Below, in pieces: positions 29,853 to 31,112 of a DNA stretch of 64,000 nucleotides (position 1 is the stretch's first letter; each line of letters starts with the position of its first letter). The notes under the pieces are model-generated. The model was not told the origin of the DNA and searched no databases. It was given only the letters and a program-made list of their open reading frames with translations. A program made the translations under genes and the position numbers. This DNA comes from a virus (taxonomy: Duplodnaviria > Heunggongvirae > Uroviricota > Caudoviricetes). Where the stretch lies: IMG/VR virus record IMGVR_UViG_3300029839_000128; one strand, 5' to 3'.

Positions 29853-29965
29853 AACGGCAGGCAGGATTTGAACCTGCGAATGGCGGCTTGGCATTTTTAC
29901 CTTGCTGTTAGCGAAACTTGTTCGCATTTTTATGGCCGCTGTCTTAACCACTTGACTACTGCCGC
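29853..29965 (-). tRNA. tRNA-like gene t1 (113 nt) with ~40-nt insertion replacing the anticodon loop
   Basis: Minus-strand read: acceptor GCGGCAG/CTGCCGT, D arm GTC-AAGTGGTTAA-GAC, 5-bp stem GCGGC/GCCGC enclosing a 47-nt loop (hairpin GCGAA-CAAGT-TTCGC then TAACAGCAA), variable loop CATTC, T arm GCAGG-TTCAAAT-CCTGC. No CCA encoded. Confidence 0.55.
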
Positions 29966-30049
29966 GTATATGTCTGTCTTTCCAGACCGTCACCATTTCT
30001 GCCCATTTATGAGGTTGGTTTAGAATGGTTTAAGCAGCTCTTCCTCCGG

Positions 30050-30162
30050 TGCCGGGAGCAGGACTCGAACCTGCGACCACGGGATTAACAGTCCTAATTC
30101 ATTGCTGATGGCGTACACCCGGTACGCACAATTACGCGCTCTATCCGCTGAGCTATCCCGGC
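30050..30162 (-). tRNA. tRNA-Asn(GUU)-like gene t2 (113 nt) with ~40-nt insertion between D arm and anticodon arm
   Basis: Acceptor GCCGGGA/TCCCGGC, D arm GCTC-AGCGGATA-GAGC. Insertion GCGTAATTGT[GCGTAC-CGGGT-GTACGC]CATCAGCAATGAAT. Anticodon arm TAGGA-CTGTTAA-TCCCG (E. coli tRNA-Asn-type loop CUGUUAA). T arm GCAGG-TTCGAGT-CCTGC. Discriminator A. Confidence 0.6.
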
Positions 30163-30372
30163 ATATATAATGAGCTATGAGCGCTTCCCTCATAGAAATG
30201 ATGCCCTCCGCAGTTGCGCACCCGCTTCGGTAAGGCGCACGGTACTCTAACTACCCCGTTACGTTATTCACACGCTACACCATTTTGCATCAACCTTGAA
30301 TGCCGTTGTTTACACCGAGTAGCTATCTCGATGCGCGTAGTTAGCTAAACCACGACGCCTGTTCTGTTTGTT

Positions 30373-30449
30373 CGCTCCAGCCTGGGACTCGAACCCCGGC
30401 CCTCCGGCCATACTTCGGCCAGCGTGCTTTCCGCCTACACCACTGGAAC
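30373..30449 (-). tRNA. tRNA-like element t3 (77 nt), non-canonical (A33, mismatched T stem), possible pseudo-tRNA
   Basis: Acceptor GTTCCAG/CTGGAGC pairs 7 bp. T loop TTCGAGT present but T stem has a G-A mismatch. Anticodon-like loop GAAGTAT lacks U33. Confidence 0.35.
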
Positions 30450-30616
30450 TAAGGCACGACAAACTTAGTCAATGGGCTTTATCTTTGCCCACTCATTATT
30501 AACTTTTGGATGTCGGACTCACCAGAATTGCACTGGAGCGGCTGCAACCGTGACCCTTATCCGACAAAGATCATATATACTTTTCAGAAAGGAGGTCAAC
30601 GCCAAATGTACGCTGA

Positions 30617-30728
30617 TGCAGAAGGTGGGACTCGAACCCACGACACATCATTCCCTTTTTTAGATTGCTGTTGGTGTCACATCAATAACACACTTTTATG
30701 ATTACTCTACCAGCTGAGCTACTTCTGC
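30617..30728 (-). tRNA. tRNA-like gene t4 (112 nt) with ~39-nt insertion replacing the anticodon loop
   Basis: Acceptor GCAGAAG/CTTCTGC, canonical D arm GCTC-AGCTGGTA-GAGT. Stem ATCAT/ATGAT encloses a 46-nt loop (hairpin GTGT-N12-ACAC then CAACAGCAA). Variable loop GTGTC. T arm GTGGG-TTCGAGT-CCCAC. Discriminator A. Confidence 0.6.
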
Positions 30729-30811
30729 ATATTGCCGTCTGTCCGGCTGTCAAGCGTCAATCCGCTTTGTTTGAGAGAGAGGGGGAGAAATGAGAGTTAG
30801 CGGCTTGAGGG

Positions 30812-30923
30812 GAGGGAGCTACGGAATCGAACCGTAAACAAAAGATTTCAAGTCTTTTTTGTTTAAGTTTGCTGTAAGTGTCCGCCGCCAATTACACTGA
30901 AAATGTTGCCACCAGACGCTCCC
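30812..30923 (-). tRNA. tRNA-like gene t5 (112 nt) with insertion; anticodon arm with UGA anticodon (Ser-type loop CUUGAAA) but short variable loop
   Basis: Acceptor GGGAGCG/AGCTCCC (one mismatch). Hairpin GTGT-AATTGGCGGCGG-ACAC then TTACAGCAAACTT. Anticodon arm AAAGA-CTTGAAA-TCTTT. T arm TACGG-TTCGATT-CCGTA. D region atypical. Confidence 0.45.
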
Positions 30924-31019
30924 ATATAGATGCCGCACTTACACGGCAGTAGTGGTCTTTCCCACCGTCATTTGAAAGGGGGTCAATACGGATTTACTAT
31001 CGCCGGCCACCACACCAGC

Positions 31020-31112
31020 TGGCGGAGAGGGCGGGACTCGAACCCGCACACCGTTTGCACGGCTACTCGTCGCTTAGCAGGCGACTATCTTACCAATTAG
31101 GCTTACCTCTCC
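31020..31112 (-). tRNA. tRNA-Ser(GCU), class II, canonical, CCA encoded
   Basis: Acceptor GGAGAGG/CCTCTCC, discriminator G plus CCA. Anticodon arm GTCGC-CTGCTAA-GCGAC. Long variable arm CCGT-GCAA-ACGG. T arm GCGGG-TTCGAGT-CCCGC. Confidence 0.8.

Follow-up and report, generated by a model that had tools for sequence, protein, structure and literature searches.

Y RNAs, which contain a tRNA-like domain, are encoded on the strand of the Ro60 gene and within 4 kb of it (PMC4201824), and the Ro60 protein of a Thermus phage binds two Y-like RNAs that are encoded upstream of its gene (PMC12135203). Inserts in phage tRNA genes have been reported as the 'enigmatic introns' of Lak phage tRNAs (bioRxiv 10.1101/356790). 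In Listeria phage CKA15, a DUF2828 homologue lies downstream of strongly transcribed non-coding regions, and the 2025 Listeria phage transcriptome paper merely speculated on Y RNAs (PMC12282133). DUF2828 proteins, annotated as 'Ro-like RNA-binding proteins', occur in 711 phage records in INPHARED, and the carriers include Felix O1-like, A511/P100-like, Campylobacter, Staphylococcus, Bacillus and mycobacterial phages. To our knowledge, the RNA partner of these proteins had not been defined.

The window analyzed here, a single 64-kb stretch of phage DNA, contains a DUF2828 gene directly downstream of a cluster of tRNA-like elements. The features of the locus are listed below in their 5' to 3' order on the minus strand, with the evidence for each in brackets.

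31547–32446, minus strand: SPFH/Band-7 gene directly upstream of the RNA cluster (Pfam PF01145)
31190–31247, minus strand: M0, a free-standing 58-nt stem-closed unit (fold and sequence)
31020–31112, minus strand: t6, canonical tRNA-Ser(GCU) with CCA encoded and the module absent (ARAGORN; Rfam tRNA 46.4 bits)
30813–30923, minus strand: t5, tRNA-like RNA (sequence, intron-permitting ARAGORN, fold)
30617–30728, minus strand: t4, Pro-like tRNA scaffold, anticodon region AGG with G37 (Rfam tRNA 49.4 bits with a 46-nt insert; orthologues)
30373–30449, minus strand: t3, degenerate tRNA-like element without the module (ARAGORN 'Thr-AGT'; under the Rfam tRNA threshold)
30050–30162, minus strand: t2, Asn-type scaffold (sequence, fold, orthologues)
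29853–29965, minus strand: t1, Gly-type scaffold (Rfam tRNA 50.4 bits; ARAGORN Gly-GCC with a 40-nt insert at 32/33)
29809–29842, minus strand: M5, minimal unit (helix GAACAC/GUGUUC around AA-ACAGCAA-N13)
28240–29775, minus strand: DUF2828/DUF7788 gene, predicted divergent Ro60 with a TROVE-like helical ring and vWA domain (Pfam; PHROG 850 'RNA-binding protein'; predicted fold)
26990–28144, minus strand: class-V aminotransferase/cysteine desulfurase gene (Pfam and PHROG)
25441–26940, minus strand: RNA ligase gene (Pfam and PHROG)
25137–25604, minus strand: YunG-like gene (Pfam and PHROG)
24332–25144, minus strand: nucleotidyltransferase gene (Pfam and PHROG)
23421–24332, minus strand: P-loop kinase and HD phosphohydrolase gene (Pfam and PHROG)

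Six tRNA-like elements (t1–t6) were confirmed on the minus strand of 29853–31112, as the preliminary description had proposed. All six were called by ARAGORN when introns were permitted; the default settings returned t6 as Ser-GCU and a weak t3 (30373–30449) and nothing else. The Rfam tRNA model matched t1, t4 and t6 with the scores listed above (the t6 match spanning 31023–31112) and passed over a 46-nt stretch in the anticodon loop of t1 and t4. Only t6, already singled out as the sole canonical element, is a bacterial-type tRNA found by a default predictor, with a cloverleaf of 72–93 nt and a 7-nt anticodon loop containing U33. The anticodon loop of t3 (GAAGUAU) is without U33 and its T stem has a mismatch. 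The remaining four elements (t1, t2, t4 and t5) are 111–113 nt long, and intron-permitting ARAGORN and folds, joined for t1 and t4 by the Rfam model, agree with the earlier claim that each carries an insert in which a hairpin is followed by (A)CAGCAA, here located in the anticodon arm. Several elements encode CCA. The RNA cluster gave no blastn match against cultured phages, and a scan of it for sigma-70 promoters and terminators showed no enrichment over shuffled sequences.

The hairpin and motif together form a handle. In t1 it occupies 29902–29925 (GCGAA-CAAGU-UUCGC UA ACAGCAA) within the anticodon loop, between A-rich linkers and with GCCAA retained on its 3' side. A covariance-style alignment of the inserts had been suggested, and RNAalifold analysis of 11 t1 orthologues returned a cloverleaf together with an insert hairpin that covaries. 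The handle of t4 (30665–30691; GUGU-N10-ACAC CA ACAGCAA) likewise lies inside the anticodon loop, and a scaffold of the t4 type with an intact CUAGGGA loop was found in Aeromonas phage LAh_6. The t2 handle (30102–30127) reads GCGUAC-CGGGU-GUACGC C AUCAGCAA and contains a variant of the motif. It had been placed between the D arm and an intact anticodon arm; the insert in fact follows position 28 and splits the 5' strand of the anticodon stem (CG / insert / GGA CUGUUAA UCC CG), while the stem-loop GGA CUGUUAA UCC is indeed intact. The acceptor, T and anticodon stems of t2 covary among nine aligned orthologues, in which the body is unchanged while the anticodon is GUU, UGU, UUU or GAG, and a cyanophage carries a t2 homologue (Asn-GUU). 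In t5, the handle hairpin and UU-ACAGCAA (30869–30897) separate the D region from an intact, Ser-UGA-like stem-loop (CUUGAAA), in agreement with the earlier placement. The hairpin loop of t5, GGCGGC, pairs with the 3' trailer AAGCCGC (30796–30812), and this pairing covaries across 16 aligned orthologues (GCGGC/GCCGC, ACGGC/GCCGU, AUCGGC/GCCGAU) whose anticodons vary between UGA, GCA, GGA and GGG. The four 111–113-nt elements are tRNA-shaped RNAs with a signature module grafted into the anticodon arm.

The module has the consensus G-R-C-R-C-N-W-ACAGCAA-U-N-U-U; its GRCRC arm forms one side of a helix that covaries, and conservation beyond ACAGCAA was seen over 93 copies. This extended motif occurs five times in the 1.4 kb of the cluster and is absent from the rest of the 64-kb window, in which about four plain ACAGCAA matches per strand would be expected. 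The module is always on the tRNA strand in phage tRNA arrays. A search of related phages for it, recommended in the preliminary description, was productive: a pattern search of IMG/VR returned 120 loci, 73 of which hold at least two copies. The pairing partner of the GRCRC arm lies either upstream, giving the hairpin within tRNA bodies, or 14–112 nt downstream; a downstream complement is present for 183 of 324 unique copies and for 32 when the arms are shuffled. Among 21 aligned diverse units, the 7-bp helix is 100% paired with compensatory changes at five of the seven pairs, and its covariation score is 0.67 compared to 0.22 for shuffles and 0.08–0.14 when the partner is slid. A looser closing-stem test (G-U allowed, four spacer lengths, 160-nt reach) was not discriminating alone; the argument for the closing stem uses the stricter, shuffled-arm-controlled test and a covariance model, R1, which was trained on metagenomic units only.

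These data bear on the earlier proposal that the inserts are a recent miniature mobile element, and on the related idea that they have inactivated tRNA genes as a signal at the DNA level, for example a phage promoter. The t1 insert is flanked by a 12-nt direct repeat (11/12 identical), as the preliminary description had noted, and a sequence-specific motif of ~20 nt is promoter-like. However, the repeat is not conserved among t1 orthologues, and the similar repeat claimed for t4 was not detected. Inserts occupy the same positions in orthologous scaffolds of phages whose DUF2828 proteins are just 58–85% identical, with compensatory changes in their stems, and insert-bearing Pro-type and Asn-type scaffolds also occur in an Aeromonas phage and a cyanophage. 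A genome-wide phage promoter of the T7/SP6 or AR9 style was rejected because the window has no copy of the motif in its other 62 kb and because the motif requires a complementary strand upstream or downstream, which a promoter would not need. A mobile or DNA-level origin is therefore very improbable. An antisense intrinsic terminator, considered because the inserts read as a hairpin and T-run on the plus strand, was also rejected; the feature is confined to tRNA-embedded copies and was thus judged a by-product of the A-rich 5' linker. A seemingly uninterrupted t2 orthologue (locus L002, 5649–5720, called 'tRNA-Asn' by ARAGORN), evaluated as a sign of insert presence/absence polymorphism, proved to be the 3' part of an insert-bearing element.

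Three forms of the module were observed in related phages: a hairpin in tRNA bodies, a stem that closes ~60-nt RNAs around an anticodon-stem-loop mimic, and a stem that encloses circularly permuted tRNAs. Two free-standing units lie in the window itself and had been missed as such. In M0, the closing helix GUGACGC/GCGUCAC is followed by CC-ACAGCAA and an anticodon-stem-loop mimic with the loop UUUGGGU (Pro-UGG-like, G37); R1, whose training units all came from other phages, matches it at 31189–31248 (E = 2e-9). The related sequence noticed earlier at about 31215 belongs to this unit, although its true position is 31232–31238. M5 precedes the DUF2828 start codon by 34 nt, within the leader of that gene and on its strand. 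M0 and M5 therefore have a 5'/3' closing stem, whereas the helix in t1, t2, t4 and t5 is an internal hairpin. Loops of the mimics include CUUGAAA, UUUGGGU, CUGUUAA and CUUUUAA, and most module copies enclose just a stem-loop or nothing. Circularly permuted tRNA genes, with the 3' half before the 5' half and a leader-trailer helix on the anticodon side, were found in six related loci (L036, L077, L086, L090, L101 and L031) and among none of the elements of the window; one permuted unit reads 3' half, ACCA, 5' half, with ACCA at the acceptor junction. A helix joining both linkers that flank the module was seen in one permuted unit and is absent from t1 and t4. Since the module may enclose nothing, an anticodon-stem-loop mimic or an entire permuted tRNA, it is independent of tRNA function.

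The genetic partner of the module is the DUF2828 gene. A DUF2828 homologue accompanies the module in each of the 23 related loci and, among the 120 loci from the pattern search, in 50 (73 metagenomic loci), down to 30–40% identity. In 11 of 13 cultured phages, e.g. Felix O1, A511 and a mycobacteriophage, the module adjoins the DUF2828 gene on the same strand; in the other two sampled, the motif was not found within 3–4 kb. Within 400 nt of the DUF2828 reading frame in these 13 phages, 19 sense copies of ACAGCAA were observed vs 0.7 expected (P ~ 4e-21) and no antisense copy. R1 also found DUF2828-adjacent units in Staphylococcus, Bacillus, Listeria, Campylobacter, Salmonella and Enterococcus phages (E 4e-11 to 4.5e-5). 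A search of the DUF2828 sequence against PDB chains gave nothing significant, and fold comparison alone was informative: with an AlphaFold model (pLDDT 76.5) as query, the six best Foldseek matches in the PDB were all Ro60 structures (E 1.7e-8 to 2.3e-4), with the match spanning the full length. As modeled, DUF2828 is a divergent branch with the Ro60 fold. The SPFH/Band-7 gene is present in 16 of the 23 related loci; Burroughs and Aravind reportedly linked TROVE and SPFH/Band-7 proteins with Y RNAs and a tRNA-like RNA in 2016. The cluster had also been tied to the RNA ligase, nucleotidyltransferase and kinase (Rnl/NTase/Pnk) genes. That tie is real in this phage, but these genes neighbor the module in only 3 of 23 related loci, and the downstream gene block (23421–28144, minus strand) is linked with the RNA cluster in the closest relatives only.

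The placement of the free-standing units raises the alternative that phage tRNA precursors carry the module as a tag acting in cis, bound by DUF2828 or a host RNase, which would direct, time or protect processing of the array with no stable trans-acting ribonucleoprotein. The module is restricted to tRNA arrays and the leader or trailer of DUF2828 genes, and 45 of 103 free-standing units end 0–20 nt before a canonical tRNA while 15 of 82 start no more than 10 nt after the 3' end of a preceding tRNA. Set against this, Fusobacterium phage phiKSUM has a single minimal unit with no tRNA nearby, the units of mycobacteriophage Halena lie downstream of the DUF2828 gene in a fetched locus without a tRNA array, and a processing tag would not need conserved anticodon-loop mimicry inside the units. 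We consider a purely cis-acting role unlikely.

The inserts and permuted genes could also reflect tRNA maturation, a form of the processed insertions that the preliminary description had listed. The module would then be a protein-recognized splice or processing signal, a functional analogue of the bulge-helix-bulge (BHB): cleavage on either side of the helix by an endonuclease, which DUF2828 might guide, would be followed by exon ligation by the phage Rnl/Pnk-HD enzymes or host RtcB to give mature tRNA-Gly, Asn and Pro, with circular intermediates in the case of permuted genes. The pattern known from BHB introns and permuted tRNA genes in archaeal and algal genomes (e.g. Cyanidioschyzon merolae) recurs here: one junction appears both closed, as an anticodon-arm insert at varying positions, and open, as the leader-trailer helix of permuted genes, one of them with the ACCA junction described above. 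RNA ligase, kinase/phosphatase and nucleotidyltransferase genes lie downstream in the operon, and the Lak tRNAs offer a precedent for introns (bioRxiv 10.1101/356790). Excision can produce a 7-nt loop with U33 in t1 and t2 as well as in the homologues of LAh_6 and BUCT-ZZ01; a canonical anticodon loop results from exact excision in t1, t2 and two homologous elements, Pro-AGG of Aeromonas phage LAh_6 and Asn-GUU of the cyanophage. For t1, which like t4 had been thought to allow no such excision, contiguous removal of 40 nt between positions 32 and 33 yields CUGCCAA (Gly-GCC, ARAGORN score 111); for t4 the earlier view held and U33 is irrecoverable.

In t1 orthologues, however, position 33 is G or A, so the canonical-loop excision is not kept. 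U33 is gone in most t1-type and t4-type orthologues while the remainder of the RNA is retained, and no contiguous excision from most of them gives a 7-nt loop with U33. Most module copies, enclosing a stem-loop or nothing, could give no tRNA product; ligase and kinase genes do not accompany the module consistently; and locus L021 has a normal tRNA-Asn beside its handle-bearing Asn-type element. No endonuclease candidate was found, and each insert has one conserved motif where two cuts would be needed. In contrast to BHB junctions, the module has a sequence-conserved single-stranded motif, and no 3-4-3 geometry can be drawn at the insert junctions, which are A-rich single strands around a simple hairpin; the setting is a bacterial virus in which no splicing endonuclease gene was seen, with many copies lacking a tRNA and U33 often irrecoverable. 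The inserts were correctly judged too short for group I introns: at 40–50 nt they fall short of the 200 nt or more of an intron with a P1–P9 catalytic core, and they match no Rfam intron model. The option of processed insertions is weakened because U33 is irrecoverable in most t1/t4 orthologues and the module occurs in tRNA-free RNAs, and a splice-signal role is improbable. It is rather doubtful, too, that the module is a sequence-specific, protein-dependent signal for both tRNA splicing and circularization, with the Ro60-like protein, an endonuclease and an RNA ligase maturing the genes. If it were, intron-containing and permuted tRNA genes would be present in many tailed phages, and bacterial viruses would have their own counterpart to the archaeal/eukaryal BHB pathway. 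The Lak inserts share over-long phage tRNA genes and conserved inserts with this locus, and Lak-B3 has a DUF2828 homologue with one ACAGCAA unit ~190 nt upstream; compared by description only, they lie at predicted anticodon-loop positions and some resemble tRNAs (bioRxiv 10.1101/356790).

The closest likeness is to Y RNA/YrlA and Ro60/Rsr, including the bacterial rsr-yrlBA-rtcBA operon, which the arrangement in this phage parallels, and the Ro60-Yrl1/2 of Thermus phage phiLo. Both have small RNAs beside a Ro60-fold gene on the same strand (here 34 nt separate the end of the cluster from the DUF2828 start codon), a conserved-element stem joined to a variable tRNA-mimicking module, several paralogous RNAs per locus, and RNA-repair enzymes as frequent neighbors (PMC4201824, PMC12135203). 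The tRNA-like domain expected of YrlA is present, with Rfam tRNA scores of 49–50 bits for t1 and t4 and a covarying cloverleaf. Unlike the known systems, the phage protein belongs to the divergent DUF2828 branch with no sequence-level match to solved Ro60 structures, the handle can be an internal hairpin in an otherwise complete tRNA with free acceptor ends, and bare anticodon-stem-loop mimics occur among the modules. The conserved element is helix-NN-ACAGCAAU in place of the bulged, Ro60-binding CGAA helix at the 5'/3'-end stem of known Y RNAs, and Rfam searches at the gathering threshold and at E ≤ 10 returned tRNA matches only, with none to the Y_RNA or YrlA models; both observations count against a Y-RNA reading. 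So do the excision-restored loops, encoded CCA and ACCA junction, as we would expect of genes matured into working tRNAs, and the ~44% of free-standing units just upstream of a canonical tRNA would also fit a cis role in precursor processing.

The motif, the covarying helix, the three topologies, the tight linkage to DUF2828 across distant phages and the predicted Ro60 fold of DUF2828 are directly supported, and the module marks a large, previously undescribed family of phage small RNAs. Based on these features, the Y RNA precedent and the loss of U33, we favor the reading that the module is the candidate binding handle of the Ro60-like protein and that the RNAs are tRNA-mimicking Y-RNA analogues, which makes the Y-RNA-like, non-decoding option raised at the outset the best fit. 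The short helix, with G-R-C-R-C as its 3' strand, two nucleotides and single-stranded ACAGCAA-U would be held by the DUF2828 protein encoded directly downstream. One end of each RNA would thus bind the protein, as in Y RNAs, and the other, a tRNA or anticodon-stem-loop mimic, would engage tRNA-recognizing enzymes. In this phage the enzymes engaged would likely be either host nucleases that target anticodons or the repair enzymes encoded in the operon itself (ligase, nucleotidyltransferase and kinase-phosphatase). RNAs that carry the handle probably do not decode, and a decoy or scaffold role is proposed for them; physical binding by DUF2828 is putative.

On the practical side, standard tRNA finders overlook or mis-call handle-bearing genes. 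A short motif with E-value-supported matches points to candidate DUF2828 partner RNAs in culturable model phages, and the hypothesis is directly testable because these RNAs are now located there. It is unusual, in bacteria and in the viruses that infect them, for a single RNA module to be combined with tRNA bodies in three topologies: as a hairpin inside them, as the leader-trailer stem of a permuted tRNA, and as a stem enclosing only an anticodon-loop mimic. Phage defense research is actively concerned with host anticodon nucleases and tRNA repair, and an anticodon that changes on a constant body, together with the topologies of the module, points to a phage strategy against enzymes that read the anticodon loop.

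The RNA cluster spans about 1.5 kb without ORFs of note on the minus strand of the window, between an SPFH/Band-7 gene and the gene for the Ro60-like protein DUF2828. It contains six tRNA-like elements, t1 to t6, and two copies of the insert motif outside them:

31547-32446, minus strand: SPFH/Band-7 gene
31190-31247, minus strand: motif copy outside any tRNA body
31020-31112, minus strand: t6, tRNA-Ser(GCU); default ARAGORN
30813-30923, minus strand: t5; ARAGORN with introns allowed
30617-30728, minus strand: t4; Rfam tRNA model (49.4 bits) and ARAGORN with introns allowed
30373-30449, minus strand: t3, weak "Thr-AGT"; default ARAGORN
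30050-30162, minus strand: t2; ARAGORN with introns allowed
29853-29965, minus strand: t1; Rfam tRNA model (50.4 bits) and ARAGORN with introns allowed
29809-29842, minus strand: motif copy outside any tRNA body, enclosing nothing
28240-29775, minus strand: DUF2828 gene

All six elements were recovered by ARAGORN once introns were allowed, while the default output comprised only t6 and the weak t3; the Rfam tRNA model skipped a 46-nt anticodon-loop stretch in both t1 and t4. The hairpin followed by (A)CAGCAA reported in the preliminary description was found in t1, t2, t4 and t5, the t2 copy being the variant AUCAGCAA. The t2 insert does carry this module but, rather than lying between the D arm and the anticodon arm as first described, it falls after position 28, splitting the anticodon stem within its 5' strand. 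The earlier statement that no contiguous excision from t1 yields a proper loop is incorrect, as ARAGORN removes 40 nt between positions 32 and 33 to leave a canonical CUGCCAA loop. The initial count of copies outside the tRNAs was also incomplete, there being two.

The non-coding spacers within the cluster at 30163-30372 (210 nt) and 30450-30616 (167 nt), minus strand, contain no tRNA-like feature, ACAGCAA or Rfam match. The sequence (T)ATAT(G) or TATAC lies directly 5' of each tRNA-like element (31113-31118, 30924-30929, 30729-30733, 30163-30169 and 29966-29970, minus strand), and in related arrays many tRNAs likewise begin just after AUAU; this may be an RNase P leader feature. Two related phage loci contain, where t3 is in the window, ~71-nt elements with a 7-bp acceptor stem, a good T arm, an aberrant middle and no ACAGCAA (L004, 5232-5302; L005, 5401-5472). 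Elsewhere, G+C rises up to 0.617 at 56001-58000, compared with ~0.45 in the rest of the window, and the cumulative GC skew turns there.

Twenty-three related IMG/VR loci were retrieved with the DUF2828 protein (47-99% identity), and their upstream regions each hold 5-11 copies of ACAGCAA along with many Rfam tRNA matches 111-124 nt long. Alignment of 93 copies gave the consensus G-R-C-R-C-N-W-A-C-A-G-C-A-A-U-N-U-U, the upstream half of which was partly selected for by the copy filter. A pattern scan of IMG/VR yielded 120 further loci; 73 of them have at least two copies, which invariably share the strand of large tRNA arrays (up to ~28 tRNAs). No family in Rfam 15 matches these elements. A general promoter was rejected as an explanation because the extended motif is confined to this cluster within the 64-kb window.

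The pairing partner of the GRCRC arm depends on its setting. In the long tRNA-like genes it pairs a few nucleotides upstream, producing the "insert hairpin", whereas between tRNAs its complement lies downstream. A downstream complement (at least 7 bp, at most one G-U pair) was present for 183 of 324 unique copies, compared with 32 with shuffled arms, and the enclosed lengths cluster at 27-48, 59-76 and 83-112 nt. Across 21 aligned, diverse units every position of the 7-bp helix is paired, with both-sided changes in 5 of 7 pairs and a covariation score of 0.67, against 0.22 for shuffles and 0.08-0.14 with the partner slid; these units were picked for being paired, so the informative part is the variety of pair types. 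The enclosed contents fall into several classes: nothing (29809-29842 in the window), a stem-loop with a textbook anticodon loop (for example CUUGAAA, Ser-UGA; UUUGGGU, Pro-UGG with G37; CUGUUAA, Asn-GUU; CUUUUAA, Lys-UUU), a stem-loop with a T arm and closed acceptor hairpin, and a complete circularly permuted tRNA, in one example ordered T arm, ACUCCCG, ACCA, U, CGGGAGU, D arm and anticodon-stem 5' strand. Given one helix pairing upstream or downstream around varied contents, the window's inserts are the same junction as in the free-standing units, loop-closed. A purely cis-acting role of the module in precursor processing is possible, as 45 of 103 free-standing units end 0-20 nt before a canonical tRNA.

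In Salmonella phage Felix O1a (JF461087), a classical laboratory phage, one of the four units (6416-6545) encloses a permuted tRNA-like module that carries no annotation in the record. Its parts are a T arm (GAGGGUUCGAUUCCUUC), an acceptor-like hairpin that is closed (ACUCG-N8-CGAGU) and a D arm.

The 45 distinct long elements fall into recurrent types: Gly (t1), whose anticodon loop holds the module; Asn (t2), where the module follows position 28 or 29; Pro-like (the t4 scaffold); and t5. RNAalifold of 11 Gly-type sequences returned a cloverleaf plus an insert hairpin with compensatory changes. Nine Asn-type sequences showed strong covariation in the acceptor, T and anticodon stems, while the length of the hairpin region varied too much for MAFFT. 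Sequences of the t5 type show covarying pairing between the handle-hairpin loop and a conserved trailer, AAAGCCG(Y). Two cultured phages share the Pro and Asn scaffolds, with the module at matching positions: Aeromonas phage LAh_6 (Pro-AGG, intact CUAGGGA loop, CCA) and Synechococcus phage BUCT-ZZ01 (Asn-GUU, variant UCUGCAA). The initial suggestion that a mobile element inserted recently is therefore not supported. An apparent presence/absence polymorphism of the insert was an ARAGORN artefact.

The module might instead be a splicing signal, with the handle-bearing genes matured into tRNAs; such genes would show a junction both closed and open, canonical loops exactly restored in some members, and CCA at acceptor ends or junctions, all of which occur. 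We consider this unlikely.

On the preferred reading, set out below, the handle-bearing forms would be non-decoding, for which three observations argue. No U33 can be recovered from t4 or from the majority of t1-type and t4-type orthologues, although their anticodon, their positions 37-38 and the rest of the body are conserved; different anticodons appear on one orthologous body from phage to phage; and the mimics coexist with normal tRNAs of the same specificity.

By tblastn, each of the 23 first loci and 50 of the 120 from the pattern scan contained a DUF2828 homologue, with identities as low as 30-40%, while just three loci shared the window's genes for RNA ligase, nucleotidyltransferase and kinase-HD. 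DUF2828 neighbourhoods were fetched from 13 cultured phages of very different lineages. Within 400 nt of the DUF2828 ORF, sense-strand ACAGCAA occurred 19 times against 0.7 expected by composition (Poisson P = 4e-21), and antisense copies numbered 0. The 11 motif-positive phages of the 13 are Enterococcus EF1, Salmonella Felix O1a, Listeria A511, Mycobacterium Halena, Campylobacter CP81, Staphylococcus SEP9, Bacillus Tsamsa, Aeromonas LAh_6, Synechococcus BUCT-ZZ01, Fusobacterium phiKSUM and Prevotella Lak-B3; Vibrio CZ01 and Serratia BF have no motif within 3-4 kb of DUF2828. The helix arms vary by phage (AAGAAUC, AGACC, AGGAAUC, GUGAGCGC and others), with a matching complement for each. R1, a covariance model derived solely from metagenomic units, matched units beside DUF2828 in 6 cultured phages (E 4e-11 to 4.5e-5) and window 31189-31248 (E 2e-9).

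R1 also scored an alternative pairing in t4 (30639-30681, minus strand, E = 1.9e-5), in which the handle arm GACAC pairs with the downstream variable-loop GUGUC and not with GUGU upstream, which may be a chance match or an alternative fold. In 16-17 of the 23 related loci, the cluster is accompanied by the SPFH/Band-7 gene and two ORFs (31256-33716, minus strand), one of 93 aa with a coiled coil and one of 330 aa with a weak match to a recombinase core-binding domain.

The protein matched DUF2828 and DUF7788 in Pfam, with a weak vWA match, and PHROG 850, labelled "RNA-binding protein"; a sequence search against PDB chains gave no match. In an AlphaFold model (33 homologues, pLDDT 76.5) the N-terminal part is entirely helical and leads into a vWA fold. 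The six best Foldseek matches in the PDB were all Ro60, aligned over the full length (E 1.7e-8 to 2.3e-4), from Thermus phage phiLo, Xenopus, human and Deinococcus. A 785-aa DUF2828/DUF7788 homologue, P0037, is joined to a phage integrase domain (PF00589), which may be a fusion or a gene-calling artefact.

Bacterial Y RNAs lie at most 4 kb from Ro60 on the same strand and have a tRNA-like domain (PMC4201824). The Ro60 of a Thermus phage complexes with host PNPase and binds a pair of Y-like RNAs whose genes lie upstream of its own, each with a 5'-3' stem and a bulge holding a CGAA motif (PMC12135203). In Listeria phage CKA15 a DUF2828 homologue is present in virions and is encoded downstream of highly transcribed non-coding regions near tRNA genes; its authors raised Y RNAs as speculation and defined no motif (PMC12282133). 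Our literature search found no paper naming an RNA partner together with DUF2828, nor any that deals with bacteriophage permuted tRNA genes. Listeria phage A511 (DQ003638) has ~640 unannotated nt between tRNA-Pro and gp59 (2452-3090), with a near-consensus promoter (TTGACA-N17-TATAGT) in front and neither ACAGCAA nor an Rfam match at gathering threshold; it is probably the counterpart of the CKA15 region yielding up to 67% of phage transcripts (PMC12282133).

The simplest account is that helix-NN-ACAGCAAU is a putative binding handle of the Ro60-like DUF2828 protein. The handle-bearing RNAs would be its Y-RNA analogues, with an outward-facing module that may mimic a tRNA or an anticodon loop. 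In this phage, genes for a cysteine desulfurase, an RNA ligase, a nucleotidyltransferase and a kinase-HD enzyme come next in the operon, so that RNA cluster, DUF2828 and RNA-repair-type genes parallel rsr-yrlBA-rtcBA. This resemblance suggests a role against anticodon-loop damage, in which the RNAs might serve as decoys for host nucleases or as repair scaffolds. Since laboratory phages, Felix O1 and A511 among them, carry members of the family, experiments on the RNAs and the protein are straightforward.
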